A DNA stretch of 64,000 nt, taken from the NCBI GenBank assembly GCA_964428725.1, contig CAYRYW010000011.1, positions 144 to 64,143 on the forward strand. Direction: 5' to 3'. Each line of letters starts with the position of its first letter. Within the stretch, counting starts at the first letter, position 1. The notes beneath the pieces are model-generated. The model made no database searches, was not told the origin of the DNA, and worked only from the letters and a program-made list of their open reading frames with translations. This stretch comes from an uncultured Dehalococcoidales bacterium. GTDB lineage: Bacteria > Chloroflexota > Dehalococcoidia > E44-bin15. Made by a program: the position numbers and the translations under genes. Below are positions 17,391 to 42,699 of the stretch, piece by piece.

Positions 17391-18253
17391 GAATGCAACG
17401 AACATCAGATAATGTGGTTATATTCGCGGCATCGCCAAGCTATTTCGATCACGCAAAAGCCGCAATGGTCAATTGTCGAATCGAGGGTGAATGGTGCGGA
17501 GATATCGCGTTAATAGTTCCGCAAGGAACAGATACTACCGAGTTTAGTGGTCGGCAGATACACATACTGGAAGGAACATCAGCAGACGGCTATTACCAGA
17601 AGTTCGATGTATTCTCGCAGTTCTTCAGGCAATGGGATAAGGCATTATATCTTGATTGTGATATTCTTATCCAGGGAAATATTGCATCAGTATTTGACAC
17701 ATTGCACAAGCGACGACAGCCAACCATCATTGCTGATCGCGAAGAAAATACTCTAGAGCATTGCTTCACCTTTTGGATCGACGAATGTAACAGAACACTC
17801 AAAGAGGAGGGTAAACCATTCAGGTCATCAAATACACAGTTGCATGAGTGGGTGTGGCGCACGCATGGACAACAGTGGCGGCAATACAATACGGCCATGT
17901 TGTTGTTTAGGCCTGATGACATCCCGTCGGACGCGATAGATCAACTGCATGAAATGTGTACCCGCATTCAGCCAATCAATACGCATTGCGTCCGTGGTAC
18001 TGACCAGCCTGTTATAAATCTTGTTTTTTACAACATGCTGTCCGATGTGATCAACAAGGAGGTATCGTGTTGGAGTTGCCCGAATGACAACACGAAAATC
18101 ATACACTATTGTTCCGGGTATGCACCATGGATAGATAAGCCAGACGCTGGGATGGATGCTTACGCTAACCCACAATTGGGTGAATCATGCCACGCAGTGT
18201 ATACTCGCAATCTTCAGCAATTTGATTCCATATTGCCAAAGGAGGACTTGTAA
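17387..18253 (+). CDS. Nucleotide-diphospho-sugar transferase (GT8-like)
   Basis: 'ALYLDCDILIQGN' DxD motif; 288 aa; start-stop overlap. Confidence 0.5.
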   Translation: MRMQRTSDNVVIFAASPSYFDHAKAAMVNCRIEGEWCGDIALIVPQGTDTTEFSGRQIHILEGTSADGYYQKFDVFSQFFRQWDKALYLDCDILIQGNIASVFDTLHKRRQPTIIADREENTLEHCFTFWIDECNRTLKEEGKPFRSSNTQLHEWVWRTHGQQWRQYNTAMLLFRPDDIPSDAIDQLHEMCTRIQPINTHCVRGTDQPVINLVFYNMLSDVINKEVSCWSCPNDNTKIIHYCSGYAPWIDKPDAGMDAYANPQLGESCHAVYTRNLQQFDSILPKEDL

Positions 18254-18802
18254 ATGCTGGACATGACGGACAGAGGCACAATGGCGGCCACTCTTCCTAA
18301 TGGCGGCGTGGTGGCGGAAGTTGGCGTGCAGCATGGCGATTTCGCCGACATGATCGTGCGATTTAACAAGCCACGAAAACTCTATCTGATCGATTGTTGG
18401 GAAACGCAATCCGTGGCGGATTATGGACATGATCCAGCAAACGTCGCACAAACACAGCAGGACGAAAACGAAAGAACGACTAGGGAACGGTTCAAAGACC
18501 ATGCGAATGTGGAAATAATCAAGGGGTACTCCGTTGAAGTAGCCGAGACATTCCAGGACGAAAGCTTAGACTGGGTCTATCTAGATGCCAATCATTTGCG
18601 GATTCGTTCTGACTTAGAGGCATGGATTCCTAAAGTGAAACCTGGCGGTTGGGTCACTGGCCATGATTATTGCATCTTTGATGATTTTATTATGGTGCAG
18701 CCTGTATTGGATAGGTTCGTTGAGGAATACGGCGCACAATTGCACGTTGTGACGAATGAAGACTTCCCTAGCTGGGCATTCAGGAAGCATGGACACAAAT
18801 GA
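18254..18802 (+). CDS. Class I SAM-dependent methyltransferase (TylF/Methyltransf_24-like)
   Basis: 'VAEVGVQHGDFA' motif I-like and 'WVYLDANH' motif. Confidence 0.65.
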   Translation: MLDMTDRGTMAATLPNGGVVAEVGVQHGDFADMIVRFNKPRKLYLIDCWETQSVADYGHDPANVAQTQQDENERTTRERFKDHANVEIIKGYSVEVAETFQDESLDWVYLDANHLRIRSDLEAWIPKVKPGGWVTGHDYCIFDDFIMVQPVLDRFVEEYGAQLHVVTNEDFPSWAFRKHGHK

Positions 18803-19608
18803 GTACGAGTTTTGCGATTACTGCATACAATGAAATGTCGCCACAGCGCGGCTCTGGCGCGAAAATACTTAGATGCCTGAAAGCAGCGCAAAATCATCCT
18901 GGTATTGATGAGATTGTGGTTGTGGATGACTGCTCAGAGGATTGTGATGGGTTGGAACACTTACTGCGAGGACAGGCAAAAGTATCTCTTTTCCGAAATC
19001 CGCACAATTACGGAGTCTTCGGGAATAAACTGGAAGCCATCGCCAGGGCAACTGGCGATTGGGTAATTACGTGCGACTCAGACAACAGCATGGATAGTAC
19101 CTTTATCGACAAGGTGCTATCATTAGCCACCGATCAATCTGTATGGTTATGTGCCAGTTTTGCGAGGCCGCGATTCAATTATCGGCCACTTGCGTCAGAT
19201 ACTCCGTATACATTGACTAGTATATCACAAATCGTGCCACACCCGATTTTCTGTTGCTTCTTCAACACTGGAAATCAGACAGTAGCTAGACGATCATTCC
19301 TGAATGTCTTTGGGCAATATCGTGGCATCAGGGCAGATAGGCAACTGCCGAATTGGCTGGAGTTGTCAGAACAGGACTTGCAATCAACATACTATGAGCA
19401 AGTCTTCGATGCTAATGATTCGTTTGTCTACAACTTGCTCTGGTTGCTTGCTGGAAATAAGTTGCGCATAGTGCCTGGCCTGGAATACGATCATTATTAT
19501 GCAGCTGGCGAAGAGGGCAACTATTTGCGGTCGCCACCTGAAAAGGTGGCACTTGGGCAGCGACTCTTGCAGGCACTGAAAACAGAAATAAAGAAACAGC
19601 ATGTATAA
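18799..19608 (+). CDS. Glycosyltransferase family 2
   Basis: 'FAITAYNE...', 'IVVVDDCSED' and 'ITCDSDN' are classic GT2 motifs. Confidence 0.75.
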   Translation: MSTSFAITAYNEMSPQRGSGAKILRCLKAAQNHPGIDEIVVVDDCSEDCDGLEHLLRGQAKVSLFRNPHNYGVFGNKLEAIARATGDWVITCDSDNSMDSTFIDKVLSLATDQSVWLCASFARPRFNYRPLASDTPYTLTSISQIVPHPIFCCFFNTGNQTVARRSFLNVFGQYRGIRADRQLPNWLELSEQDLQSTYYEQVFDANDSFVYNLLWLLAGNKLRIVPGLEYDHYYAAGEEGNYLRSPPEKVALGQRLLQALKTEIKKQHV

Positions 19609-20422
19609 TTCAGACTGGCTTATTGGCGAACATACCTATCGGCAATTTATTGAGGATTGTAGGCTTGCAGTGTCCGATCCTGTGTATTTCCCGGTCTTTC
19701 GCCAAATGCCAGGGATCGCCTGTGTCACAGAAAACAAGGACGTTGAGCACAAGGTATTGAAGCCGATCTTATCTGAACTGTGGAGGCATTCCCACACGAC
19801 ACTTGAGGATGCGGCATTCTTGCATGCATTAGACGATGTCGGAACACCAAGACGGCATCACATAACGCGCACGCTGCACGTATCACATACTCTCATACAC
19901 ACACTCGAAGACGTATGTGTCATTCGCGAATTTATGGGTGGCACTCTACACGGGAAGCACGTAGTGGAAATAGGAGGTGGATATGGGCTACTTGCTGCCA
20001 TGGTAGTGCATTTTCTTGAGCCAGCTAGCTACACTATCTACGACCTGCCGGAAGTGTGCGATCTTCAGAAGAAATATCTGCATCATGTAGGAATAGATTC
20101 AGTCAAGTTGTGTACGGATGCAACTATCTCTAATGTGTCTGATCTCGCAATAAGCCTTGATTCTATTTCGGAGTTGCCACTGGTACTACGCCAGACGTAC
20201 GTTGATTCTGTGCTCGACAATGCAGAAAGAGGATTTATCAGGTGGAATTGCACTAGAGCGGCAACTACCAATGTCCTTGCCGCTATGTATTGGCTGAGAA
20301 ATGCGTCATGCATTAAAGAGATCGGGCTCGACTTTTCCACAGAACAGGCCGCAGCGAAGTTTCACCATTCCAGGCGCACGAGTCATATATTTTGGGGCGG
20401 GAATACAACATGTCACGAATAA
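19601..20422 (+). CDS. Putative sugar O-methyltransferase
   Basis: 'VVEIGGGYGLLA' SAM-binding glycine motif; operon context. Confidence 0.5.
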   Translation: MYNSDWLIGEHTYRQFIEDCRLAVSDPVYFPVFRQMPGIACVTENKDVEHKVLKPILSELWRHSHTTLEDAAFLHALDDVGTPRRHHITRTLHVSHTLIHTLEDVCVIREFMGGTLHGKHVVEIGGGYGLLAAMVVHFLEPASYTIYDLPEVCDLQKKYLHHVGIDSVKLCTDATISNVSDLAISLDSISELPLVLRQTYVDSVLDNAERGFIRWNCTRAATTNVLAAMYWLRNASCIKEIGLDFSTEQAAAKFHHSRRTSHIFWGGNTTCHE

Positions 20423-21321
20423 TAACCATGTCGCAATTTGGCACCATGGGTAGAGCAGCAAATCAGTTTTTGCAATACGCATTTCTGAAGACATGGGCTG
20501 CCAAATATTCCATGGACTTGGAAATCCCGCCGTGGATAGGGAATACATTATTCGGCACTGTCGACACGCCTATAGGACGAACGCTTCCGCCATACCACGA
20601 GACTCCGGGTAACAGCCTGCTGCAGCCAACCTTGCCTAACGAGAATGATATCGACAATCGCGATTATCGCGGGTATGGACAATATCACACAAGTTTTTAC
20701 GGCGGTTATGAACTCTATCTGTCCGGTTTGTTCAGGCCGACATTGGATACAGAAAGTCGCCTGGTTGATGCACGCAAGCGATTGTTGCATGATTGTGACA
20801 TTACCATAGGCTTGCATGTCCGTCGAGGAGATTATGGCAGGCGTATCTTTCCACTAACGCCGATCAGTTGGTACGTCAACTGGCTGGAAACACATCTGCC
20901 ACGATTGACGGGATACAAGCTATTTGTAGCCAGTGAAGATCCAACCGTTGCGTCAGAACTGACAGGATACCACGTAGAGACAGCAGAATCATTGGGTGTG
21001 CAATACACATCGGAGCAATATGCACACTACAACTATCTTCGAGAGGACCTCAAGAGCGGAAATCCTGGAGATATAGATTGGTATCCGGATTTCTACTTGC
21101 TGTCGCAATGCGACATTATCGTAGGTGGAGCATCCACATTTTCGTTTGTTGCCGCAATGCTCAATCCGTTTTTGCAAGAGTACTGGCGCGCCACGCTTGC
21201 GGATAGGCAATTCGTACTGACCGACCCGTGGGACGCCTATCCATTTATCCGAGAGCATGTGAGAGATTACTCCCACATTCCTGGCATCACTGCTTCACCA
21301 GACAACCCGTACTGGAAATAG
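20410..21321 (+). CDS. GT11-like (alpha-1,2-fucosyltransferase-type) glycosyltransferase
   Basis: The 'GLHVRRGDY' motif is characteristic of GT11 fucosyltransferases. The N-terminal 'GRAANQFLQYAFLK' fits (GN.mFqya). Start chosen at ATG 20410. Confidence 0.55.
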   Translation: MSRIITMSQFGTMGRAANQFLQYAFLKTWAAKYSMDLEIPPWIGNTLFGTVDTPIGRTLPPYHETPGNSLLQPTLPNENDIDNRDYRGYGQYHTSFYGGYELYLSGLFRPTLDTESRLVDARKRLLHDCDITIGLHVRRGDYGRRIFPLTPISWYVNWLETHLPRLTGYKLFVASEDPTVASELTGYHVETAESLGVQYTSEQYAHYNYLREDLKSGNPGDIDWYPDFYLLSQCDIIVGGASTFSFVAAMLNPFLQEYWRATLADRQFVLTDPWDAYPFIREHVRDYSHIPGITASPDNPYWK

Positions 21322-21381
21322 CCCTAGCCCACTCGTCGCATGGTGCATTCGCTCCCGCCATGCTGTAGAGTTGGGCTAGGG
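21322..21381. terminator. Nested-hairpin bidirectional terminator between convergent genes
   Basis: CCCTAGCCCA (21322-21331) pairs with TGGGCTAGGG (21372-21381). An inner GCATGG/CCATGC stem sits at 21338-21343/21358-21363. Confidence 0.4.
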
Positions 21382-21394
21382 CAGTGATTCGGCG

Positions 21395-21955
21395 TTAGAT
21401 CAATAGTCGCCGTCGTGTGAAGAACACAAGCCCAGCAATCCCCGCTAGGCCAGCAAGAAACGTGCTCGGCTCCGGTGCAGACACAGCCTCTCTGACAAGC
21501 GCATGCCCGCCAAAGCGATCGCCTTGCACCCAATCGGAATGTACGGAAGTGACGCTCCAGCCCGTATGAGCGTGGCCAAGTAATGGGTCTATCTGGCCTA
21601 GTGAGAACATCTGAATGTGTGCCCTAGGCCCATCGATAATCAGGACCACGGCTTCCTCTTCGGGTGTTCCCATCAGGTCAAACACAGTCGCCGCAAGAGC
21701 ACGATCTTCCTCATTGACGAGTCCTCCGATTCGCTCGAAATGGAACTTCTCCAGGAATTCCTGGAATTCCGATACCGTGGCATATCTCCATTCCGACAAC
21801 TCCACTTCGGGAGGTGTCAACCCTGCTGTCTCGCTCCAGTCGAGCCAATCAAGTCCCGCGTCCGTGTCTGTAGTGTATGTGCCATGGTCGATCATTTCAG
21901 CGGACGCATGGCTAACCGATAGCAGTAGTCCGACGAACACAAGTAGGCGTGTCAT
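21395..21955 (-). CDS. Secreted PEP-CTERM (exosortase-sorted) protein
   Basis: Signal peptide 'MTRLLVFVGLLLSVSHASA'. C-terminal 'PEPSTFLAGLAGIAGLVFFTRRRL' is a PEP motif plus TM helix plus basic tail. Start set at the ATG ending at 21955. Confidence 0.8.
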   Translation of the reverse strand: MTRLLVFVGLLLSVSHASAEMIDHGTYTTDTDAGLDWLDWSETAGLTPPEVELSEWRYATVSEFQEFLEKFHFERIGGLVNEEDRALAATVFDLMGTPEEEAVVLIIDGPRAHIQMFSLGQIDPLLGHAHTGWSVTSVHSDWVQGDRFGGHALVREAVSAPEPSTFLAGLAGIAGLVFFTRRRLLI

Positions 21956-22045
21956 GGTAACCTCCTTAGGGTGTCTGCTTACCACACCAGGCATGCAAAA
22001 AGTGTGCAGGCGACAACAGCCAACGCCAAACACAACACAACAAGA

Positions 22046-25586: not shown

Positions 25587-26764
25587 CATCGCGCCTGCGT
25601 CCACAATTCCTTGACTGCTCCGGCATGACGCTCGAAGAAGCGGAGTCATTCGGGCATGGGCTGGCAGAACAGCAGCGGGATTGCCTCTGGCAGATTGGCG
25701 ACCTAGTGCGGCATTTCGAGGCGACAAATCCGGATGTATTCCATCAGATATTTCCCGAGTGGACCAGCCCGGACCTGATATCGCGATGCAAGGCAGTAGC
25801 GCAAGCGTACCCAACGGAGGACGATCGCAACACGCTAGCAACCTGGACAACACACATGCGACACGCTAATCGGCCTGATCGGGTTAAGCTGGTGCAGGCT
25901 CATGTCGACGCGGGCCACACGTCAGACGAGGCCAGAAAAGCAGACGCTAGCGAACGCCAGGAGAAGGAGCGAACGCGATGGTTGCTGGCAGTGGACGCGA
26001 ACTATTATCTCCATAAAAACTGGTTTTCCGGGGCCGGGGTGGAGGCAGCGTCCCGGGTGGCAGCATGGGTGGAACGCACTACTGCGAGACTGAAGGACAA
26101 GGGATTGACGGATGTGCTGTGTTGTTTCGATTCCAAGAATAATTTCCGGAAGGAGTTAACCGAGGAATGGGAAGACAAGTACAAGCCACGGCCACCAAAA
26201 GAGCCGGAACTGATCCAGCAGTTAGTATTGGTGCGAGAGCTACTTGACAGGCAAGGGTGTGCGTGTGTATCCGTGGATGGATTTGAGGCCGATGACGTCA
26301 TGGCGAGTGCGGCTGCAAAATTCCCGGGACGTGTCACGCTCCTCACGCAAGACAAGGACTTGCGCCAGTGTTTGACGGAGACATGTAATATGTTGCTTGG
26401 CGTCGAATGGTCGGAAGACGAAACGACCGGCGAACTCACGCCAGAATACGAGTGGGTCAGTGCGAAGACACACATGGACGACACAGGCATTCGCCCCAGT
26501 GAGTGGGCGGAATACCAGGCAATCTGCGGAGATAACGTAGACGGAATCAAGGGCGTGTGCGGCATCGGCGTCAAGGGGGCAAAGGACCTGATTAGTGAGT
26601 TCGGCACGGTCGGCGCAACCATTCAAGCGGCGAAGGATGAGGACGAACGCATAAAGCCCAAGCAACGTGAAGCACTTATTGCGTTCGAGCCGAAAGCAGA
26701 CATTACGCTGCAGTTGGTGACACTGCGGACGGATTTGCCGGTGCGGGTGCACACGAGACTATAA
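25583..26764 (+). CDS. 5'-3' exonuclease / flap endonuclease (PIN-like plus H3TH) with N-terminal extension
   Basis: 'VLCCFDSKNNFRKEL', 'VDGFEADDVMAS' and the H3TH motif 'GDNVDGIKGVCGIGVKGAKDLISEFG'. Confidence 0.8.
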   Translation: MTSRLRPQFLDCSGMTLEEAESFGHGLAEQQRDCLWQIGDLVRHFEATNPDVFHQIFPEWTSPDLISRCKAVAQAYPTEDDRNTLATWTTHMRHANRPDRVKLVQAHVDAGHTSDEARKADASERQEKERTRWLLAVDANYYLHKNWFSGAGVEAASRVAAWVERTTARLKDKGLTDVLCCFDSKNNFRKELTEEWEDKYKPRPPKEPELIQQLVLVRELLDRQGCACVSVDGFEADDVMASAAAKFPGRVTLLTQDKDLRQCLTETCNMLLGVEWSEDETTGELTPEYEWVSAKTHMDDTGIRPSEWAEYQAICGDNVDGIKGVCGIGVKGAKDLISEFGTVGATIQAAKDEDERIKPKQREALIAFEPKADITLQLVTLRTDLPVRVHTRL

Positions 26765-26865
26765 GGGTAGTAACGCGGATTGTGTACATCGAGCCGGAAG
26801 ACAATGGCGTTGTCGCATATTGCGCGTTATTGAGGCTGTGCGATAATGCACAAGCAGGAGTACAT

Positions 26866-27060
26866 ATGATAGTATCAAAACCTCGACTGGCGGTAGTCAA
26901 GCAAACTCGCACGGTCACAGAGATCGCGCTAGTCCTCCTGGATCGAGATGGTGATGTTGAGGCAGTGAAGGAAATCCGCGAGGAGCTATCGCTTGACGAC
27001 GATATTCAGGTGCATGCTGTGATAGAGGTCTTGTCAGTGCAGCGCGTTCGTGACGCCTGA
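26866..27060 (+). CDS. Hypothetical small protein
   Basis: Start chosen at the ATG after an AGGAG RBS; 64 aa. Confidence 0.35.
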   Translation: MIVSKPRLAVVKQTRTVTEIALVLLDRDGDVEAVKEIREELSLDDDIQVHAVIEVLSVQRVRDA

Positions 27061-27093
27061 ATGCAACCACACAGGAAGGTGGTGTGAATACTG

Positions 27094-27636
27094 ATGGCAC
27101 AGACACTAACCGAAGAAGAAAAGGCCGAGCGAGCACGGCAACGGATGCTAGCGAAGGCGGCGGAATACCAATTATCAACCTATGCAAATAGGTTTGTGGC
27201 ACAGGTATTTCAGAGGATGATTCGGGCGGAGGCAGCCGCAAAGCCAGCTGGGACAGTAACTGCAGTCGTCAAGGGAGAGTTGGCGCAAGTGCCGCGCAGG
27301 GTAGGGGAATGTGTATGTGTGACATGTGGCAAGGTCAGGCAGTGGAGAGACAGCCGAGGAAGCATGCAGACTGGGCACTTTTTGGCATCGCGATGTTTCT
27401 CGATACTGTTTAATGAAGAGAATGTCGCACCGCAATGCGTAAGGTGCAATAACTACAGGAGCGGCGCAGTGGAGGATTACCATATCTGGATGGTGGCCGA
27501 GCGTGGCAGGTCGGCGATGGAGAGACTGAAACGATTGAAAGCGACCACGCGACATTTTACGCGGGAAGAACTAGTTGATATGCGGATCGGATTTGACGCG
27601 CGATTGAGCGAGGCTATCACCAGGATGACGCGGTAA
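27094..27636 (+). CDS. ninG: NinG/Rap-like recombination endonuclease
   Basis: 'CVTCGKV...QTGHFLASR...NVAPQCVRCN' matches the lambda NinG family Cys/His pattern. Confidence 0.65.
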   Translation: MAQTLTEEEKAERARQRMLAKAAEYQLSTYANRFVAQVFQRMIRAEAAAKPAGTVTAVVKGELAQVPRRVGECVCVTCGKVRQWRDSRGSMQTGHFLASRCFSILFNEENVAPQCVRCNNYRSGAVEDYHIWMVAERGRSAMERLKRLKATTRHFTREELVDMRIGFDARLSEAITRMTR

Positions 27637-27681
27637 CATGAAGCGTAAGCTGGCTGTGGCTGACAGGCGAGAGGATGAGGA

Positions 27682-28080
27682 ATGAAAAAGGGAATCTGCA
27701 AGCATTTTCGTGGCACGATCAACAAACGTTGCGGCCGTGGCGTTGTCATTCGCGAATTGGTTGGCGGGCCCGACCGTGGATGGGTCACGCGGCTACCCTG
27801 TCACCAAGCGAACACGACGGCCATCGGCTGCGAGCAGTACGCGGAGCCGACCGACGACGAGGTAGCCGAGTACGACGCCGAGGTAGCAAAGGACGCCGCG
27901 CGCATGAAGGTACTCGCGCCGGCAATATCGCGCATCAAGGAAGAGAACCAAGGCAAGAACACCAAGGGGACCATGGAATGCCCGATCTGCGGCGGTGATC
28001 TGCATTGGACGCATGCCGCGTACAACGGCCACGTCTGGGGGCGCTGCGAAACGAAAGATTGCGTGTCGTGGATGGAGTGA
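27682..28080 (+). CDS. Cys-rich zinc-finger protein
   Basis: 132 aa containing 'CPICGGDLHW...GRCETKDC'. GAGGATGAGG RBS region. Confidence 0.5.
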   Translation: MKKGICKHFRGTINKRCGRGVVIRELVGGPDRGWVTRLPCHQANTTAIGCEQYAEPTDDEVAEYDAEVAKDAARMKVLAPAISRIKEENQGKNTKGTMECPICGGDLHWTHAAYNGHVWGRCETKDCVSWME

Positions 28081-28104
28081 TGGGATAACCACGGAGACAC
28101 GAAT

Positions 28105-28345
28105 AGCGAGCAGGAAATAACCCGCTGCATGGTGCATGCCTTAGGGATGGATTACCCGGGCAAGCCGGTTCGAGTCCGGCGGCGGGGCTTACAGGGAGAC
28201 ATGCCAGTAGGGCATGGGAGGCGTCCTGCACGCCTCATGGCGAGAATAGCTACGGACGCAACGAGCCGTGTAGCACTCGCCAGAGTTACTCTCCGCCGGT
28301 CGGGTCGTTCACAAGGCGGCCCGGCCGGCATCCCCTTCAGTAACG
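28105..28345 (+). ncRNA. Highly structured non-coding leader upstream of the Cas12-like gene (tracrRNA-like or attP/tRNA-3'-fragment candidate)
   Basis: About 270 nt with no convincing ORF. It carries at least 6 consecutive stem-loops: GCATG-GTG-CATGC, GCCGG-TTCGAGT-CCGGC (tRNA T-arm-like), CATGCC-AGTAG-GGCATG, AGGCGT-CCTGC-ACGCCT, a long GGCGAG...CTCGCC stem and CCGCC...GGCGG. Strand is assumed. Confidence 0.3.
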
Positions 28346-28352
28346 AAAGATA

Positions 28353-29945
28353 ATGATGGCCAAGAAGAAACCGAAGCACGAAGAGAAAGAGTATGTCGGC
28401 GCGATCCGCGTGCAACCGGTCGGCATCCAGGCGGTAGATGGTGAAAGCCCGAAGGCGTTTCGCGAGGCGATGGAACCGATTGCCGTGGCCGTGCAGCAGC
28501 TTAAGAACGTGGCCATGTTCGCCTGGTATAGCTGGCACCGCAAAGTGGGCAACGTGCAGTTGGTGATGGACTGGGTCGACGAGATACTGGCGTGGGATCG
28601 CGAGGTTAAGCCGGTCGCGCAGAAGTTCGTGGCCGACACGCGGCAATACGAAAAAGACGCTGCGGCCTGGAAGAAATCGCCCAAGGGAACCCGTGGCAAG
28701 CGACCAACGAAACCGAAAAAACTCCATGCCGACCGGCCAAAGTGCCCGGTCCTTCCGTACCCGAAAGCATGTAGCAACGCGATCTATCACGAGGTCAGTG
28801 GGGCAATACCGCTACTCAACAAACGAGTGGTGGTGTTGGCGCTGAATCGGATGTTCAGCAACCTGAAAACACATCAAGTCGCCTTCCGGCCTGGGCAATG
28901 GAACCAGTGGACTGGATTCAGGGAATGGCACGTGATGCTGGCGGGGTATGGGCTATTCTCTCAATGCCACAAGCCGCAACCGATCCCGATCGATCGCGAT
29001 AATTGCACGCTGATCCCACCGGACGCGGAAGAATCACGTTGGCGGGCCTTGATTCGTGTCGATCGCGTACCGACGACGACCAAGGCAGGCAAGGAGGTAT
29101 TTCGTTCCACGCCATGGGTAGTGACGCTCAAGACTGGCGGACGGCATGACGCGAAGATTCGCAACATGCTCGAAAAATGCCACTCGGGCGAGTGGAAATT
29201 CTGCGGGTCGAATCTCGTCTGGCGCAACGGCATGTTCGACGTGGAGGTATCCTACAAGCAAGAGAAACTCGAACCGATCAAGGCCGACCCGAACAAGGTG
29301 GCCGTCTTGGTACCAGGGCGGAAACGGGGGTGGCGATTGCGGATCAACGGCCGGTCCTGGTGGCTGGGCGGCAAGGGTAGCGACCGGCTGGTGGGTGTCT
29401 TTCGTCGGCAGACGGCCGAGCGGAAGGCAACCTTCCACGCCTCGTACCGGCACGGGGGCACGGCCCGGCAAGGGCACGGGCGTCAGACGGCAATGAGGGG
29501 TTTTTACAGCAAGAAAAACATTCTGGCTAGGTACCAGCAGCAATACAACGGTCGGATTGTTCGCGAGGTAATTCAGCAGATGGAGCGGCACGGCGTGGGG
29601 ACACTCGTCTTTCGTTCGCCGTCGGGAAGCGTGGAGAAGACACGGTTGCTCTGTACGGCGGGGGCTGGTCGCAAGGGCGGATCGTGGCCGTGGCACCAGG
29701 TGGACACGCGATTGAAGGCGGTCTGTCATCGGCACGAATTAGTGTACGAATCGCCGCGTCGGAAGCGGCGCAAACGCGAGGGGTCCGGTGGCGCGAAAAA
29801 CCCCGGGACCGCTCGCAAAGTCGCAACGGCTGACGGCAACAAGGATTGGGGCGATCGGAGCAAAGCGAATGGGCGAAAGAAACGCGCAAACGGGGCGGCT
29901 CGACGCGACCTCTCGAAAACGGCCACGCAAAAGGCCGTGGGGTAA
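28353..29945 (+). CDS. Compact Cas12/TnpB-like CRISPR-associated protein, apparently RuvC-inactive and C-terminally truncated
   Basis: 530-aa ORF ending 18 nt before the first CRISPR repeat. WED-like and RuvC-like sequence patterns are present (KVAVLVPGRKRGW; GVGTLVFRSPSG; SWPWHQVDTRLKAVCHRHELVYESP), but the expected catalytic Asp and Glu are absent and there is no Zn-finger or RuvC-III. Lys/Arg-rich tail. The ORF itself is near certain; the family assignment is by eye. Confidence 0.5.
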   Translation: MMAKKKPKHEEKEYVGAIRVQPVGIQAVDGESPKAFREAMEPIAVAVQQLKNVAMFAWYSWHRKVGNVQLVMDWVDEILAWDREVKPVAQKFVADTRQYEKDAAAWKKSPKGTRGKRPTKPKKLHADRPKCPVLPYPKACSNAIYHEVSGAIPLLNKRVVVLALNRMFSNLKTHQVAFRPGQWNQWTGFREWHVMLAGYGLFSQCHKPQPIPIDRDNCTLIPPDAEESRWRALIRVDRVPTTTKAGKEVFRSTPWVVTLKTGGRHDAKIRNMLEKCHSGEWKFCGSNLVWRNGMFDVEVSYKQEKLEPIKADPNKVAVLVPGRKRGWRLRINGRSWWLGGKGSDRLVGVFRRQTAERKATFHASYRHGGTARQGHGRQTAMRGFYSKKNILARYQQQYNGRIVREVIQQMERHGVGTLVFRSPSGSVEKTRLLCTAGAGRKGGSWPWHQVDTRLKAVCHRHELVYESPRRKRRKREGSGGAKNPGTARKVATADGNKDWGDRSKANGRKKRANGAARRDLSKTATQKAVG

Positions 29946-29963
29946 GGGGTTGCGAGGGCTGCT

Positions 29964-31014
29964 GTGAAAACGTGTGGGGAGAGGGAGAGGGATTGCAGGC
30001 TGGAAAGAATCCTGCCTTCGAGTAAAGGATGCGATGTGTGAAAACGTGTGGGGAGAGGGAGAGGGATTGCAGGGTGAGTACGATCGTCCGGAAGACGGCA
30101 CACAAGGACGTGAAAACGCGTGGGGAGAGGGAGAGGGATTGCAGGCCCGGAAAAACTCCACTGGGGAGAACACGCTTTCGGGTGAAAACGTGTTGTGAGA
30201 GGGAGAGTGATTGCAGGCAAAGTGGTCGAACATCGGACAGACCTACTAATGGCAAGTGAAAACGTCTGGGGAGACGGAGAGAAATTGCAGGAGTCCTTTC
30301 CGAAAAACGTGGAAACGTCTGGGGAGACGGAGAGGGATTGCAGGGGCAGTCGTCTTGACTCGCTGCTCATTGCAGCTTCGGTGAAAAAACGTCTGGGGAG
30401 ACGGAGAGGAATTGCAGGTCGGCTTGCTTGCGATCGTTGGCGCTTCGTCGCACTTGTGAAAACGTCTGGGGAGACGGAGAGGAATTGCAGGTCCTGCTGG
30501 TCGCACCTACACACGAGAAAGCGTGCGTGAAAACGTCTGGGGAGACGGAGAGTGATTGCAGGGGGGGCTGCTGATGCCGTGTCGGTGGCGTGAAACCTTT
30601 GGGTAAAGTGAGAGGAATTGCAGGACCGAGTTAGGCGACGTGAAAACGTCTGGGGAGACGGAGAGTGATTGCAGGCCAGAGGCGGTTGTGTACAAGGCGG
30701 ATTCTGCCGGAGTGAAAACGTGTTGGGAGAGGGAGAGTGATTGCAGGCAGGAATGCGTCCGTCAATGGCTGCTGGTGGGCCGGAGAGTGAAAACGTGTGG
30801 GGAGACGGAGAGGAATTGCAGGGGGGGCTGCTGATGCCGTGTCGGTGGCGTGAAACCTTTGGGTAAGGTGAGAGTGATTGCAGGAAAAGCTACGTGTACT
30901 TGGCGAGTGTTGCGCTAGAAAGTGAAAACGTGTGGGGAGAGGGAGAGGGATTGCAGGGTTGTGTTGGTCGTGCGGCAAGTGGAAACGTCTGGGGAGACGG
31001 AGAGGAATTGCAGG
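29964..31014 (+). CRISPR. CRISPR array, 16 repeats (35-38 nt) and 15 spacers (15-39 nt)
   Basis: Repeat consensus is GTGAAAACGT(C/G)TGGGGAGA(C/G)GGAGAG(G/T)(A/G)ATTGCAGG. Repeat starts: 29964, 30038, 30110, 30182, 30256, 30309, 30381, 30456, 30527, 30590, 30640, 30712, 30787, 30850, 30922, 30979. All spacers are unique except S9, which equals S13. Confidence 0.85.
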
Positions 31015-31060
31015 GCATCAAATCCGCGTAGATCAGTTGCGGCCCCGGGAGCCGCGCAAC

Positions 31061-31294
31061 ATGAAAAGAGCTAGAAAACAAATCAACCGCCGTTGTCCGT
31101 GTGGGAATCGTGTCCCACGCCCGACGGCAACATACTGTTGTGCCGCGTGTTCTCGCGCGGCGGATATTTTTGAATCGCTCAACGAAACAAAGGAGCCAAG
31201 TCATGGCAAAGAAGACAAGCAAACAGAAGCCCTACGCGAGACAATGGCAACGATTACAAGACCTCAAGCAACAAGCGGGCGCGAGCCGGTTTGA
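31061..31294 (+). CDS. Small zinc-ribbon protein candidate
   Basis: ATG 47 nt after the last repeat. 'RCPCGNRVPRPTATYCCAACSRA' follows the CxCG...YC..C ribbon pattern. Its 3' part overlaps the next gene out of frame, so the extent is uncertain. Confidence 0.3.
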   Translation: MKRARKQINRRCPCGNRVPRPTATYCCAACSRAADIFESLNETKEPSHGKEDKQTEALRETMATITRPQATSGREPV

Positions 31295-31784
31295 GCGGGC
31301 TACGCTCGCCGTAGGTCTATTCGATGATGTCGAGTGGCGTGAACACATGGGCCTGGCTGACGATCATCAGGCGGCGGACATATTGACCAAGGCGTTGGAT
31401 GATCTGGGGATTCCGTTCTTCGACCTCCGACAAATGCTTGAGGCGTTTCCGGCGGAACAAGACTGGCTAGAGATGACGCCCTTCGACATGCTCGTGGCGG
31501 CACAAGCACAAGAGGCCAAGCCCGAGCAAAACGCACCACCGAAGCCACCTACCGTTGTTGGGATCACCAAATATGAGGAAGTGTGCAATGAGCGAGACAG
31601 GCTGCAACGACGTGTAGAGCAGCTAGAATCGCATGACACACCTGCCTGTGTCGGGCCGTGTGACGTGTTGGATGCATTCATGCGCATAGCTGACGCGAAC
31701 CGGGACAGAGGCAACGATCCGCTGTTGCGCCCAATCTACGCGATCATCGATAGCGTGGCAGAGACGGCAAACACACCGGTATAA
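31203..31784 (+). CDS. Hypothetical protein
   Basis: Start after an AAAGGAG RBS; 193 aa. Confidence 0.55.
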   Translation: MAKKTSKQKPYARQWQRLQDLKQQAGASRFERATLAVGLFDDVEWREHMGLADDHQAADILTKALDDLGIPFFDLRQMLEAFPAEQDWLEMTPFDMLVAAQAQEAKPEQNAPPKPPTVVGITKYEEVCNERDRLQRRVEQLESHDTPACVGPCDVLDAFMRIADANRDRGNDPLLRPIYAIIDSVAETANTPV

Positions 31785-31814
31785 TATCTAACAGAATGCC
31801 AAGGAGCGATAGAC

Positions 31815-33296
31815 ATGACAAGTATTGATATTACCAACCCCGGGCCCATCGAGGGCGTGTTTTCAGTGGACCTATCCAAGGGGCCGGGAGCGTATGAGTT
31901 TCGCGGCGCTCGCGGCACTGGCAAGACCACCTGTATTTCCTCTATCGATTGGCTGGCGGGCCACAAGGTCGACGTGACCTTGCACGACGGGGCGGCCAGC
32001 GGAAAGGTCGAGGGGTTCGGCGTCGTGGCACCGATCGGGAGCCGGAAGCGGCGCAAGGGGGAATTCGAGATCGACACGATCGACGCGGAGAAATTCAGCC
32101 TGACCGACCTGATCGACCCGCCGGGCAAGACGGCGGAAGTTCGGGACGCGCATGCGATCAAGGCGCTGGCGGTATTGTCGGAGGCGAAGGCGGACGCGGC
32201 GGTCTATTACGATCTGGCCGGTGGCCAAGCGGCCTTCGACGCGCTGGGCATACAGGAAACGAGCGACCCGGTTCTTCTTGCCACGCGGGTCAAGCGGGCC
32301 TATGACAAGCTCGCGGGTGAGCGAGAGAACACGGCGAAATCGGAGGCGGCCCACGCGGCACCGCTGGAACACATCCCCGACGGCCTGGATATGACCCAGT
32401 CGGCCGACCTTGCCGAACTGGGAAGCGTCCGCGACGAAGCACGCGACACGTTGCAGCGGCTGACGACCGAGCGGGAAAACGGCATCGCCAAGGAGGCGGA
32501 AGCGGGCGAAGCCATGGAACGGCTGGAGACGTTACGCACCGAATACAGCGGGCCGACCGTCGAGGACGCCGACGCGGCAAGGCAAAAGGCGGCCGACGCG
32601 TGCACGGCCGCAAGGGAACTGGTGGACGCACTCCAAAAAGAATTGGACAAGGCCATGGCGGCCGTCGAGGCGTGCAGGACCGAATACCGGGCAGCCGCAT
32701 CCACCTACGACGCCGCGAAGTCGCACCGGGCGGCCCTGGTCGAGGTGACCGCCATTGCCAACCAGACGGTTGCCTACCCCGAAGAATCCGCCATCGAGCG
32801 AGCCGGGGCGGACGTCGAGGAAGCAACGGAAGCCTACAACCGGGGCGTGCAACTGCGCGACGTACACCACAACCAGGCGAAAGCGAAGGCCCATCGCGAG
32901 GCCGAAGACAACGCGGCGAAGGAAGCGGCCATCGCCCGCAAGAAAGCGGGGCAGGTCTTCGACATCCTCGCGCAGTCGCTGCACACAAAGCACCTGAAAA
33001 TTCAGAGCGTCGACGACAATCCTCGCTTGTTCGTCGAGCACCCGAGACGCGGCAAGACGCTATTCGATCGGGTCAATGGGCTCAGTGACGGCGAGCGGGT
33101 CGACTTCACGCTTCGCGAATTGTTGCCGCACATCAAGTCACCGGGACTGCTGCCGATTCCCCAACGAGTCTGGCAAGACCTCCAGCCGACCGACCGGAAG
33201 GACCTGCACGCACTGGCCGTCGACAAGGGGCTTTACCTATTCGGCGCGCAAGTGGACGACGGCGAGTTGCGGGTGAGTTTTCTTGGGGACAAATAA
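31815..33296 (+). CDS. P-loop ATPase with long coiled-coil (SMC/RecN/SbcC-like)
   Basis: Walker A 'GARGTGKT' near the N-terminus, a long Ala/Glu/Arg-rich helical middle, and 'LSDGERV' (signature/Walker B-like) near the C-terminus. Confidence 0.6.
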   Translation: MTSIDITNPGPIEGVFSVDLSKGPGAYEFRGARGTGKTTCISSIDWLAGHKVDVTLHDGAASGKVEGFGVVAPIGSRKRRKGEFEIDTIDAEKFSLTDLIDPPGKTAEVRDAHAIKALAVLSEAKADAAVYYDLAGGQAAFDALGIQETSDPVLLATRVKRAYDKLAGERENTAKSEAAHAAPLEHIPDGLDMTQSADLAELGSVRDEARDTLQRLTTERENGIAKEAEAGEAMERLETLRTEYSGPTVEDADAARQKAADACTAARELVDALQKELDKAMAAVEACRTEYRAAASTYDAAKSHRAALVEVTAIANQTVAYPEESAIERAGADVEEATEAYNRGVQLRDVHHNQAKAKAHREAEDNAAKEAAIARKKAGQVFDILAQSLHTKHLKIQSVDDNPRLFVEHPRRGKTLFDRVNGLSDGERVDFTLRELLPHIKSPGLLPIPQRVWQDLQPTDRKDLHALAVDKGLYLFGAQVDDGELRVSFLGDK

Positions 33297-40358: not shown

Positions 40359-41833
40359 AGATATACCTCGACGCACGTGATATCGAGTCCTATCGACAAT
40401 TCCTGGCGGTGAAGGAATTACCCTCGTATGCAATCAATGGGCGTATTGCGAGCTTTCCGGACGAATACGCATCACGGGTTGGGATGTCATGTGCGGACGA
40501 CACGGATCATGAATGGCGGACGCATCCCGATGCGTTTGATTATCAAGACGGGATTGTCCGGATGGCACTTAATAAGCGGAAGTTCTGCATCTTTGCCGAT
40601 TGTGGGCTTGGCAAGACGCTCATGTTTCTTGACTACGCGAGGAACGTCCTGGATGTGATGGACGCGAAGAAAAAGGCCCTGATTATTTCTCCCCTCATGG
40701 TGGTTGACCAAACTGCGGCCGAGTGCGAGCGATTCTTTGGTGAGGAATTGCCATTGGACAAGATAGCATCACGCGACCTTTCAGAATGGTTGACTAGCGG
40801 AGATGGCAGGTTTGGAATAACAAACTACGAGGCATTGAAAACAGACGTTCCCCAAGGCAAGCTTGGGTGCTTGATCTTGGATGAATCATCCCTGCTGAAA
40901 TCCCACTACGGTAAATTCGGCACGGAGTGCATACGATTAGGACGAGGGCTTGACTGGAAACTGGCGTGTACTGGCACGCCGGCACCGAACGACCGAATCG
41001 AGTACGGCAACCATGCGGTGTTCATGGACGCTTACCCAACAGTTAATAGTTTCCTTGCCCGATTCTTTGTGAATCGCGGGCAGACGCAAGAGCGGTGGGT
41101 GTTGAAACAGCATTCTCTTGGAGCCTTCTATCGTGCGTTGTCACATTGGTCAATCTTTCTCAATAATCCAGCCACTTATGGATGGACGGACAATACGGAG
41201 GAGTTGCCACCGATAAACGTCCATGTCCATGATGTTGAGATGACGCCGGAACAAATCGAGTTAACGCACAGGAAGAATGGCGAGTTATTCGCACATCGAC
41301 CTGGCGGGATTACCAACCGAGCCGCGATGAGTTCGATAGGAAAAGGCTGCTACAAAGGGAAGCGAATTCCGACGAACAAGACAGCGTATATCAGGGGATT
41401 AGTTGAACAATGGCCTGATGAATCGACCATAATATGGTGCCTGTACAACGCGGAACAGGACATCGTGTCAGAGGCCATACCGGAAGCGGTGAGCATGTAC
41501 GGGAGCACGCCGCACGCGGATAGGGTTCGGATGATCGACGACTTCAAGGCTGGCAGGGTGAAGACATTGATAAGCAAGCCGAAGATTCTCGGTTTCGGGT
41601 TGAATCTACAAATAGCAACCCGCCAGATATTCAGCGGGCTGGTGGATAGTTACGAGAGCTATTATCAAGCTGTGAAACGGTCGAATCGATTCGGGTCACG
41701 GTATCCATTGAACGTCCATATTCCTGTGACCGATATTGAGATGCCCATGGTGGAAACGGTTATCCAAAAGGCGGGCCGTGTCCAGCTGGACACAGAAGAA
41801 CAGGAACGAGTATTCCGAAAGGCTATGCAATGA
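40355..41833 (+). CDS. SNF2/DEAD-like SF2 helicase
   Basis: 'DCGLGKTLMFL' (motif I), 'LILDESSLLK' (motif II), 'ACTGTPAPN' (motif III), and a C-terminal helicase lobe ('LISKPKILGFGLNLQ'). Confidence 0.75.
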   Translation: MKIYLDARDIESYRQFLAVKELPSYAINGRIASFPDEYASRVGMSCADDTDHEWRTHPDAFDYQDGIVRMALNKRKFCIFADCGLGKTLMFLDYARNVLDVMDAKKKALIISPLMVVDQTAAECERFFGEELPLDKIASRDLSEWLTSGDGRFGITNYEALKTDVPQGKLGCLILDESSLLKSHYGKFGTECIRLGRGLDWKLACTGTPAPNDRIEYGNHAVFMDAYPTVNSFLARFFVNRGQTQERWVLKQHSLGAFYRALSHWSIFLNNPATYGWTDNTEELPPINVHVHDVEMTPEQIELTHRKNGELFAHRPGGITNRAAMSSIGKGCYKGKRIPTNKTAYIRGLVEQWPDESTIIWCLYNAEQDIVSEAIPEAVSMYGSTPHADRVRMIDDFKAGRVKTLISKPKILGFGLNLQIATRQIFSGLVDSYESYYQAVKRSNRFGSRYPLNVHIPVTDIEMPMVETVIQKAGRVQLDTEEQERVFRKAMQ

Positions 41834-42699
41834 GCGATATACTAGACGGCAAGCGATGGGATATCCATCATGGCGATTGCGTGGAACACATGGCCACCAT
41901 GCCGGACCGATCAATTGATTTTTCGGTATTTTCGCCCCCCTTCCCGAGCTTGTATGCCTATACGTCATTCGCCGAGGACATCGGTAACAGTGAGGATTTG
42001 AGGGGTGAGGCCAAAATACATTTGTCGTTCTTTTATCATCAATTTGCACGAGTGCTAAAGCCTGGCCGTGTGGTGATGGTGCATGTCGCCCAGATACCAA
42101 GGATGAAACGCAGCGGAGGAGTCGGGCTGTTTGACTTCCGTGGGTTGAACATCCGATTGGGTGAACGTGCGGGGCTGGTATTCGAGTACGATTGGATGGT
42201 CAGGAAGGGGCCGCAAGCTCAGGCTATTAGGACACGCAGTACTGAATTACAGTTCCAGGGGCTTGAGCGTGATCGCGCGAAGTGCCGAGGCGCGTTGCCG
42301 GATTACTTGCTGAAATTCCGGGCAGCAGGTGATAATGCAACGCCGGTAGTCTCCAAGGGTGACGTGTCGCGCAATGACTGGATTCAATGGGCGGAGGCAT
42401 GCTGGGACGACATCCGAGAAACGGACACGCTTAATGTGAAGGAGGGTCGTGGCGACGATGATACGAAGCACATTTGCCCATTGCAACTTGGTGTTATCAG
42501 GCGTTTAATCAAGCTATACACTAATCCTGAGGAGATTGTGTTTTCTCCGTTTGCTGGAATCGGAAGTGAAGGATACGAGGCTATTCGTCTTGGGCGTCGA
42601 TTCTTCGGTTGCGAGATCAAGGACGAATACATCGCGGCGGCTAGAAGGAATTTGGAATCAGCGGTCAGGAGCCAAGACACAGAGAGGATGTTATTTTAA
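41830..42699 (+). CDS. DNA methyltransferase (beta-class N6-adenine/N4-cytosine)
   Basis: 'SIDFSVFSPPFPSLYAY' ((S/D)PP(F/Y) motif IV) and C-terminal 'FSPFAGIGSEGYEA' (FxGxG motif I). Confidence 0.85.
   Translation: MSDILDGKRWDIHHGDCVEHMATMPDRSIDFSVFSPPFPSLYAYTSFAEDIGNSEDLRGEAKIHLSFFYHQFARVLKPGRVVMVHVAQIPRMKRSGGVGLFDFRGLNIRLGERAGLVFEYDWMVRKGPQAQAIRTRSTELQFQGLERDRAKCRGALPDYLLKFRAAGDNATPVVSKGDVSRNDWIQWAEACWDDIRETDTLNVKEGRGDDDTKHICPLQLGVIRRLIKLYTNPEEIVFSPFAGIGSEGYEAIRLGRRFFGCEIKDEYIAAARRNLESAVRSQDTERMLF

Follow-up and report, generated by a model that had tools for sequence, protein, structure and literature searches.

A phage CRISPR array beside a nuclease-dead Cas12f and a repeat-matched candidate tracrRNA, read as a probable guide store for DNA binding without cleavage

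The 64,000-nucleotide (nt) stretch analysed here, which we call the window (positions 144 to 64,143 of contig CAYRYW010000011.1, archived under an uncultured Dehalococcoidales bacterium), is phage DNA, with genes for a tape measure protein, a tail fibre, both terminase subunits, a portal and head morphogenesis. Its early region, which encodes Rad52, a 5'-3' exonuclease, NinG, a ParB-like protein and a helicase, surrounds a compact module made up of a CRISPR array, a gene for a nuclease-dead homolog of Cas12f (dCas12f), a candidate trans-activating CRISPR RNA (tracrRNA) and two small open reading frames (ORFs). The positions of these features are collected in Table 1, and loci of related phages are designated by L numbers. 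The array had been singled out in an earlier note, made from the letters alone, as an atypical one with two repeat families and very uneven spacers.

Table 1. Features of the dCas12f module in the window (aa, amino acids)
Feature	Position	Strand	Basis and remarks
Candidate tracrRNA scaffold	28215..28297	+	Hairpin 1, two-part stem, linker CAGAGTT, anti-repeat; structure covariation, covariance model
GC-rich hairpin GCCGGTCGGG ... CCCGGCCGGC	28296..28330	+	Directly after the anti-repeat; read from the sequence
dCas12f homolog gene, nuclease-dead, C-terminally truncated, 530 aa	28353..29945	+	Profiles, AlphaFold2, Foldseek
CRISPR array, 16 repeats and 15 spacers (14 unique)	29964..31014	+	Formal parse and repeat search; repeat-then-spacer order
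Four-cysteine zinc-ribbon ORF	31061..31294	+	C-x(1,2)-C ... C-x(2,3)-C conserved in the window, L002, L009, L014, L032, L034 and L036
Protein of ~190-220 aa, helical N-terminal and coiled-coil C-terminal part	31203..31784	+	Always after the zinc-ribbon ORF

The array is a genuine repeat-spacer array and shows the generic features of CRISPR, namely at least three repeats of 23-55 nt, unrelated spacers and an adjacent cas gene. The formal parse gives repeats of 36 nt except for R7 (38 nt) and R10 and R14 (35 nt), and spacers S1 to S15 of 38, 36, 36, 38, 17, 36, 37, 35, 27, 15, 36, 39, 27, 37 and 21 nt, most of them 35-39 nt long, with four unique ones (five array positions) shorter, at 15-27 nt; an independent repeat search also recovered the 16-copy family. 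These counts and lengths agree in every detail with those read off by eye in the earlier note, as do the memberships of its repeat classes: A (R5-R9, R11 and R16), B (R1-R3 and R15), hybrids (R4, R12 and R13) and divergent repeats (R10 and R14). The unit S9+R10, which had been seen to recur as S13+R14 with an identical 27-nt spacer, lies inside a 99-nt duplication (30527-30625 versus 30787-30885, 94% identical) that also takes in the repeat before each copy, and the fragment of a repeat 5' end described at the end of S5 is indeed there, ...GAAAAAC running into the GTG of the next repeat. The best local score between spacers (13) equals the maximum over 40 shuffles, the duplicated S9 being the sole exception, and no spacer matches the 64-kb window itself above shuffled controls, as the by-eye search had also suggested. 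Since the spacers are thus unrelated to each other and to the window, a satellite is ruled out, and with it the possibility, raised at the outset, that the spacers are decayed copies of one another or of the flanks. The G+C content of the spacers is 57%, versus 54% for the phage.

The dCas12f gene ends 19 nt before R1, and the JGI gene call starts it one codon later (529 aa). Pfam and NCBIfam recognised no family in the 530-aa protein; PADLOC profiles matched it to Cas12u3 (6e-11) and Cas12f (2e-9), and a profile built from this protein together with the two relatives nearest to it found Cas12f1 (2e-11, with Cas12f1 structures ranging from 2e-11 to 6e-9), AsCas12f (4e-9) and the "nuclease-deactivated Cas12f" chain 9n9c (2.7e-6) in the PDB. 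An AlphaFold2 model built from a 130-sequence alignment (predicted local distance difference test, pLDDT, 87; predicted template modelling score, pTM, 0.78) was matched by Foldseek over some 460 columns to AsCas12f (E 5e-18), OsCas12f and SpCas12f1 (to 6e-13) and 9n9c (1.7e-12), with weaker matches to Cas12m2 (E ~3e-6) and TnpB (8iaz, E 1e-6). Of the hallmarks of type V-F, the Cas12f fold (WED, REC, RuvC; 400-700 aa) is present and the Asp-Glu-Asp triad and zinc ribbon (TNB) are not. In the HMMER alignments Val320 stands in place of the RuvC-I aspartate and Arg421 in place of the RuvC-II glutamate, the Cas12f alignment ends just before the zinc ribbon and RuvC-III, both of which are absent, and residues ~485-530 are modelled as a basic disordered tail. 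Judged by its sequence, the protein is a Cas12f unable to cut DNA. The tail ends in a motif, RR(D/N)LS(K/Q)TATQ (window 29900-29945, residues ~516-530; L002 2050-2096), that is kept at only 30% protein identity, the codons of the window and L002 differing synonymously; its appearance is that of a docking peptide, not of a nucleotide signal.

An exhaustive profile search placed this protein in a large family, with 588 cluster representatives (clusters at 50% identity), 194 of them at E<=1e-30, which are nearly all 410-500 aa long and matched end to end. All of the 150 best members are nuclease-dead and lack the zinc ribbon and RuvC-III as well. The six commonest residues are R, V, S, H, W and F in the Asp column and L, F, V, Y, R and C in the Glu column; D or E is never among those listed. 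Replacement of the catalytic columns throughout these 150 indicates that nuclease loss is ancestral to the family and that the proteins have been maintained, and the existence of at least 194 full-length clusters points to selection and not to decay. All retrieved contigs of the family are phage. A catalogued member or relative may be A0A1P8DIN8 in BFVD, an unnamed 467-aa protein of an annotated virus that resembles the dCas12f model (Foldseek E 4e-12).

At every locus with enough sequence the array lies beside the dCas12f gene, mostly just downstream, where in some cases it overlaps the stop codon; L032 and L009 have it between the upstream RNA element and the gene. That element, the candidate tracrRNA, is itself conserved upstream of the gene wherever there is enough sequence to see it. 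A whole-repeat scan of the flanks for an anti-repeat had done no better than shuffled repeats and Rfam gave no match in 26000-33000; the anti-repeat emerged only after the upstream regions were aligned. These non-coding regions share long identical blocks in the window, L001, L002 and L005 despite protein identities of ~30-38%, and these four sequences were aligned with those of L032, L033, L034 and L036 to give a three-helix structure, derived by hand. In this structure 93% of positions are paired, versus 33-41% when partners are slid, 9 of the 19 pairs show compensatory changes, and none of 500 shuffles reached the covariation score. The resulting covariance model scores 90.6 bits on the window element and finds the element at 71-74 bits in two lineages outside the training set, L009/L011 and L013/L014/L015, lying in the latter inside an over-extended ORF call. 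There the model falls within the called 5' end of the dCas12f ORF (P0151/P0011, 464 aa; L013 10001-10098, L014 49-146), whose start has probably been over-extended by ~35 codons, the conserved protein beginning at MRKEKPAIRI.

In the window, the long two-part stem consists of GGCGAG...CTCGCC enclosing AGCTACGG...CCGTGTAGC, and the anti-repeat ACTCTCCG stands at 28289-28296 (in its extended form, GTTACTCTCCG, 28286-28296). This variable segment just 3' of the conserved stem complements the repeat of its own locus in nine lineages, the anti-repeat and repeat segments being ACTCTCCG and CGGAGAGT in the window, GTTACCC and GGGTAAC in L001, AATTCCTTTCCA and TGGAAAGGAATT in L002, CACGTCTCA and TGAGACGTG in L033, GTCACCC and GGGTGAC in L036, GTCAT + ACCCC and GGGGT..ATGAC in L034, CTCCCC and GGGGAG in L032, CTACCCTT and AAGGGTAG in L014, and CCACACTGA and TCGGTGTGG in L009. 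Duplexes between an anti-repeat and its own repeat average -16.4 kcal/mol versus -8.4 for non-cognate combinations, and only 2 of 5040 permutations are as good; two further lineages, beyond the permutation set, have 8- and 9-bp matches. There is thus a strong case for a tracrRNA matched to the local repeats, which would be expressed. The GC-rich hairpin that follows the anti-repeat is its probable 3' end and may serve as a terminator, with a weak U-tract in the window. Hairpins or T-runs likewise follow the anti-repeat in L001, L002, L014, L033, L034 and L036, which suggests a separate small transcript. At L032 (1955-2260) the anti-repeat is joined via a 7-nt TAAAAAC loop to the 3' half of a repeat (GGGGAAATACAGG), and more repeat-spacer units and then the gene follow; the fusion reads as a natural single-guide RNA, the tracr/half-repeat step proposed in PMC10691335.

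A different arrangement is seen in the relative P0005, where a second array (L006 1-140, L007 1-170) with the repeat CCTGTAGCTGGCCTTCATTTTGAGGGTAGTTGCAGG lies upstream of the gene; this repeat has self-complementary ends and only its 3' 12 nt in common with the downstream repeat, and the TTCATTT in its middle is the complement of AAATGAA in the downstream repeat. A 16-nt tracr motif gave 16 matches in IMG/VR (L016-L031), all of them chance matches without a related gene. Longer tracr patterns were absent from the JGI metagenome contig set, GTDB genomes and IMG/VR, and protein-pattern scans likewise found nothing, from which it appears that these phages are absent from those collections. The large terminase subunit of the window found matches of only <=34% identity.

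Once the anti-repeat is known, the heterogeneity that made the array seem atypical becomes intelligible. When the repeats are aligned from their 3' ends, positions -1 to -8 (ATTGCAGG) and -11 to -15 (GAGAG, the core that pairs with CUCUC of the anti-repeat) are invariant in 16/16 copies, and variation is confined to the 5' half and to positions -9, -10, -16 and -17. All 16 repeats can pair with the anti-repeat, at energies from -9.0 kcal/mol (R10) to -19.6 (R9 and R11). The hairpin in the 5' half is worth -6.6 kcal/mol in family A and is stable also in R10 and R14; in family B, at -0.8, it is essentially absent, so that, provided family B units work, it is no general requirement. The earlier note had argued from the hairpin kept in the divergent repeats that the stem-loop is functional, which family B, on the same proviso, does not bear out as a general rule. 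Its two families stand as a description; the tracrRNA escaped it, and the true constraint is the tracr-pairing GAGAG together with ATTGCAGG. The simplest reading is that the variable 5' halves are under weak constraint, that selection acts only on the ~18 nt at the repeat's 3' end and on the stretch of spacer next to it, as in the CRISPR RNAs (crRNAs) of Cas12f, and that the rest is a linker free to drift, be truncated or recombine. The 15- and 17-nt spacers reach or exceed the guide length of 14-16 nt determined for the dCas12f linked to sigmaE (PMC13472631). An intrinsic terminator is scored on the minus strand at 30263-30276 and 30390-30403, where the complement of GTGAAAA comes after the family A hairpin (CGTCTCCCCAGACG and then TTTT), and repeats read on that strand might block antisense transcription across the array.

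Alleles of the array were recovered from sister samples in two ways, by scanning JGI metagenomes with merged spacers and by looking up exact copies of the protein of the downstream gene, and four of them exist among phages that are ~99% identical in flanking genes. Samples with the phage are JGI 3300017963, 3300017971, 3300017989, 3300017991, 3300018080 and 3300028840, ENA ERZ27256773, ERZ27256778, ERZ27256790 and ERZ27256796, and Logan SRR6963591. The first, with S1-S12, S9 again, S14 and S15, is that of the window and L040 and, as a partial copy ending at R13, of L004; the second (L041 and, in part, L043) has one S9 copy and is without S10-S12; the third (L042) is without S3-S8, and the fourth (L039, partial, starting at R2) is without S3-S11, both with an added unit, N1. 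This N1 (GAATCCGCCACTATCTCGTCGGGATGCTGC) is an extra distal unit between two r16 repeats, absent from the window, and at least one unit has therefore been gained or lost at the distal end of the array. The arrays of L002 and L003 also differ by one unit. At the junction of the L042 deletion stands a chimeric repeat, r3 in its 5' half and r9 in its 3' half, which, with the alleles, indicates that repeat-to-repeat recombination makes deletions, duplications and hybrid repeats. The internal recombination that the earlier note had suspected is in this way visible in a sister allele; the guide set, which it took to be fixed, differs among nearly identical phages.

In every family locus whose sequence reaches that far, the zinc-ribbon ORF is what comes next once the gene-array module has ended (with the array, or with the gene if the array is the upstream one of the two), and the ~200-aa coiled-coil protein follows it. 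The sole family match of the former is a weak one to NinF (E 0.018). Since it always trails a module whose dCas12f has lost its own zinc ribbon, a split-off domain and an unrelated partner are both conceivable. No Pfam, PHROG or PDB family was found for the coiled-coil protein, and an alignment from four loci shows ~25% identity with shared motifs. The module, with both of these genes, recurs in differing phage genome neighbourhoods, and from this synteny both genes would appear to belong to the system and the ~200-aa protein to be a possible partner of dCas12f.

The neighbourhoods themselves are varied. In L009 the module lies between the terminase and portal genes, with a capsid gene also adjoining, whereas in L013, L032, L034 and L036 it is surrounded by genes for an integrase, a CI/Cro-like helix-turn-helix (HTH) protein, an excisionase, RecT and ParB, the integrase lying upstream of the module at a distance of 1-2.5 kb in L013, L032 and L036 and of ~7 kb in L034. 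Temperate phages are clearly the source of several related contigs; in the window no integrase is among the matches listed, and its phage may or may not be temperate. A sigma factor of the extracytoplasmic function (ECF) type (Sigma70_r2 + r4_2) is encoded at L033 1559-2143, 3 kb upstream of dCas12f; it is not operonic with it and was seen in no other locus.

Targets were sought widely. The spacers of about 10 related arrays gave only 16-17/20 matches, at chance level, when compared with ~180 kb from the contigs of related phages; among 50,697 phage records and 72,556 plasmids, BLAST of the array found no match or none better than chance; and IMG/VR held no match for 8 spacers of the window array (scans S1/S3, S9, S2/S4 and S11/S14) or for N1, with S6 and S8 in no large-collection scan. 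In JGI metagenomes S7/S12 gave no match beyond a further copy of the array itself, L039, and a chance mixture, L038. The comparison of spacers with other genomes and viromes that the earlier note had proposed thus returned, in these collections, no protospacer and hence no shared flanking motif. These phages, and presumably their rivals and hosts too, are poorly represented in the collections scanned. Near-perfect palindromes occur among the spacers of relatives (L014 1480-1509; L032 2065-2080 and 2186-2211), for example GGCGGACAAACTTGCGCAACTTTGTCCGTA and CTAGTTGTGCAACTAG, and these resemble operators or terminators.

We put at roughly 0.6 the probability that the array is the guide store of a phage system derived from CRISPR type V-F, the effector of which binds DNA without cutting it and the role of which is the silencing of rival mobile elements. 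The molecular part of this reading, guided DNA binding without cleavage, is well supported, and silencing of competing mobile elements seems the most likely biological role. In such a system, the tracrRNA and the array would both be transcribed from the plus strand, and the anti-repeat ACUCUCCG would pair with the GGAGAG(U) core that every repeat has in its 3' half. The dead Cas12f, which like other Cas12f enzymes probably acts as a dimer, would bind this duplex and the 3' handle AUUGCAGG, and the first ~15-20 nt of the spacer would drive R-loop formation on complementary DNA beside a target-adjacent motif (TAM). With the RuvC site and the zinc-ribbon domain gone, the outcome would be a roadblock instead of cleavage, silencing transcription or replication of rival phages or other mobile elements either from a lysogen or during infection. 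Because nothing would be needed beyond the 3' half of the repeat and the portion of the spacer adjoining it, distal spacer ends and repeat 5' halves could drift and recombine freely, which would give rise to what look like repeat families, to hybrid repeats and truncated spacers, and to duplicated units. The presence of many unrelated spacers, with none matching the phage's own genome and with turnover among ~99%-identical phages, is a pattern typical of an immune-type repertoire and not of a fixed regulator. Protection by binding alone is a property of type IV systems; it has also been described for Cas12c (10.1101/2021.12.06.471469) and Cas12m (PMC11013384).

Binding without cleavage had also been proposed in the earlier note on the ground that short guides would suit it; the idea fits, for a different reason, namely that a nuclease-dead Cas12f adjoins the array. 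Its alternative, in which the array hijacks a Cas system of the host, is unlikely, since the phage brings an effector of its own along with a tracrRNA that fits the phage repeats.

Several points weigh against a guide store used for silencing. No protospacer was found for any spacer in the collections searched, so that the target class and TAM are not fixed, and no promoter-like site was found, a negative that depends on the type of promoter the host uses. The tracr:repeat duplex is short (6-11 bp), and processing of the precursor crRNA without an active RuvC is unexplained; repeats of family B (-13.1 kcal/mol) and of the R10 type (-9.0) pair more weakly with the anti-repeat and may be poor guides. 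The earlier note had seen no adaptation genes, and Cas1, Cas2 and Cas4 are indeed missing from the best 25 of the 77 PADLOC families matched by the 85 ORFs of the window, which leaves spacer acquisition unexplained. The two conserved downstream genes, finally, suggest something more than a simple roadblock.

This last point leads to the main rival, RNA-guided regulation of host or phage genes in the manner of TldR or dCas12f-sigmaE, perhaps with recruitment of the two downstream proteins, which we consider unlikely, if well worth keeping in view. Regulation of transcription has been proven for nuclease-dead relatives (PMC13472631; 10.1101/2023.11.30.569447), and TldRs are encoded by phages; in L013, L032, L034 and L036 the module is found in the early or lysogeny region beside integrase, CI/Cro-like HTH and excisionase genes; the synteny of the two partner genes is strict even between very divergent phages; some spacers (L014_g1, L032_g1 and L032_g3) are operator-like palindromes; and L033 has its ECF sigma factor. 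Regulators of this kind, however, usually have one to few conserved guides, whereas here there are 15 unrelated spacers that differ among ~99%-identical phages, without a match in the phage's own 64 kb, and no sigma factor is found among the best 25 Pfam families of the window ORFs. A bolder extension, which we regard as distinctly improbable, is that the dead Cas12f is a programmable recruitment platform that brings the zinc-ribbon and ~200-aa coiled-coil proteins to guide-specified DNA, and that the family is a living intermediate between CRISPR-Cas12f and array-less dCas12f/omega-like regulators. If true, it would mean a new RNA-guided phage activity (transcription control, replication block or recombination) directed against rivals or the host.

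Counter-defence by decoy appears very improbable. In this scenario the dead effector, tracrRNA and repeats would sequester V-F crRNAs, tracrRNA or Cas12f subunits of the host, and the spacers would be irrelevant, so that heterogeneous repeats and a lack of detectable targets could be tolerated. Cas12f acts as a dimer, and a dead subunit could poison an active one. Such a mode of action has been proposed for an inactivated phage Cas9 that comes with its own tracrRNA (dCas9c; PMC11656645), and RNA anti-CRISPRs are analogous. The anti-repeat, however, co-varies with the phage's own repeats in nine lineages, as expected if the phage's own crRNAs are the substrate, the 3' handle of the repeat beside the spacer is invariant, and the spacers are unique, of normal length and turned over in whole units. 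We give scarcely any credence to site selection in the manner of CRISPR-associated transposons (CASTs), with dCas12f steering a recombination machine, the integrase of the phage or another one, to sites that the spacers specify. Links to phage-type tyrosine recombinases recur among inactivated TnpB and Cas12f branches (PMC10691335), a precedent exists in V-K and Mu-associated V-F systems (PMC11656645), and integrases do lie upstream of the module in four relatives, but near the window module no integrase, transposase or Tns-like gene is among the matches listed, the L009 module stands between terminase and portal genes, and CAST arrays are very short in comparison with 15 spacers. That the whole is a decaying, non-functional remnant of a once-active phage V-F system, as loss of catalytic residues and of the C-terminus, heterogeneous repeats, spacers down to 15 nt, no adaptation genes among the families listed and no targets found might suggest, is hardly credible when at least 194 clusters (50% identity) share the truncation and yet keep full-length ORFs, the tracrRNA shows compensatory changes and tracks the repeats, two repeat blocks are invariant in 16/16 copies, the RRxLSxTATQ tail is kept via synonymous changes between the window and L002, and the same architecture functions in dCas12f-sigmaE (PMC13472631).

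Elsewhere in the window, genes for a NAD-dependent epimerase, a radical S-adenosylmethionine protein and glycosyltransferases (surface polysaccharide) lie at 15379-22033, with a 212-aa PEP-CTERM protein on the minus strand; they look like cargo of the lysogenic-conversion type and hint at a Gram-negative host with an exosortase. Several ORFs, including that at 41830-42699, have DNA methyltransferase matches, and the candidate defence families PDC-M41B and PDC-M30B are matched elsewhere in the window (E ~1e-38). A tRNA T-arm-like sequence, GCCGGTTCGAGTCCGGC (with GGTTCGAGTCC at 28167-28177), is present at 28160-28189 in the non-conserved intergenic part upstream of the tracrRNA; ARAGORN called no tRNA in the window, and the sequence could be a fragment of a tRNA gene, such as the remnant of an attachment site.

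The significance of the module lies in what has been kept. Naturally dead Cas12f has been characterised only recently, and only in array-less, sigma-linked form, while the large phage family described here keeps both array and tracrRNA. If the system works as we infer, phages carry a compact natural repertoire for CRISPR interference (CRISPRi) that changes by recombination and not by classical adaptation, which bears on phage competition and on the exaptation of CRISPR. As predicted natural DNA-binding effectors of ~430-530 aa with a defined guide architecture, these proteins could also serve as miniature CRISPRi tools.

Among known systems, the closest is type V-F1 (AsCas12f, OsCas12f, SpCas12f1, Un1Cas12f1), which provides the best whole-protein sequence and fold matches and a shared GHGRKRA segment, and with which the module has in common a dual-RNA guide, pairing of the tracrRNA anti-repeat with the 3' part of a 36-nt repeat and the repeat-then-spacer orientation. 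Unlike V-F1, it is phage-encoded, other residues stand in for the RuvC-I Asp and RuvC-II Glu, and the TNB zinc ribbon and RuvC-III are deleted, so that no cleavage is expected, and a basic disordered tail takes the place of the C-terminal domain. The genes cas1, cas2 and cas4, which are present in many V-F1 loci, are not among the families listed here. The window protein is thus a descendant of type V-F1 Cas12f and not an ordinary member, as the catalytic triad and zinc ribbon are missing.

With dCas12f-sigmaE (Hoffmann et al., Nature 2026, PMC13472631; PMC12259091; PDB 9n9c) the window protein shares a naturally dead, Cas12f-like fold, a C-terminal truncation by which part of the RuvC site is lost and the expectation of RNA-guided DNA binding, and the 14-16-nt guides of that system match the shortest spacers here. 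The sigmaE-linked proteins, however, have lost array and tracrRNA, use chimeric single guides, are operonic with rpoE on Bacteroidota chromosomes and activate transcription, whereas the window has a 16-repeat array, a separate tracrRNA, a phage context and other partner genes, with no Sigma70 among the strong Pfam matches listed. A separate CRISPR-associated dCas12f cluster has been mentioned, uncharacterised, from a Chitinophagaceae metagenome-assembled genome (PMC13472631, Extended Data Fig. 1a,b), and Altae-Tran et al. (PMC10691335) list "altered-catalytic-site Cas12f branches" along with inactivated TnpB branches linked to phage integrases. These share with the present family dead Cas12f proteins beside arrays, a predicted repressor role and an association with phage-type integrases. 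They are chromosomal loci known only from bioinformatics, with a guide matching an efflux-pump promoter, and may or may not form one clade with the present family; a tracrRNA, phage residence, syntenic partners and array polymorphism are not described for them (PMC13472631, PMC10691335). Altae-Tran et al. also predicted a stage at which Cas12f without RuvC-III was still CRISPR-linked, before fusion of tracrRNA and half-repeat; the present family fits that stage, and the fusion in its relative L032 is the intermediate that they proposed.

Other systems are more distant. Cas12m (V-M) and Cas12c resemble the present system in a likely roadblock without cutting, and V-M is carried on plasmids and some prophages, but they are different Cas12 lineages with larger proteins and crRNA-only guides that the effector itself processes. 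The TldRs of temperate phages are likewise phage-encoded, miniature, nuclease-dead proteins of the RuvC family that use a short guide for DNA binding; they descend directly from TnpB, however, and have a single omegaRNA-like guide and one conserved host target (fliC, oppF), without array or tracrRNA, whereas the window protein is closest to Cas12f1 (5e-18 versus 1e-6 for TnpB 8iaz), has both array and tracrRNA, and no conserved target was found for it. From Cas12k and the CASTs it differs in that no tnsB, tnsC, tniQ or Mu A/B is among the window Pfam matches listed and in its 15 spacers, as compared to a very short array. A 2024 review of CRISPR in mobile elements (PMC11656645) treats the phage dCas9c and Cas12m and includes nothing like the system described here.

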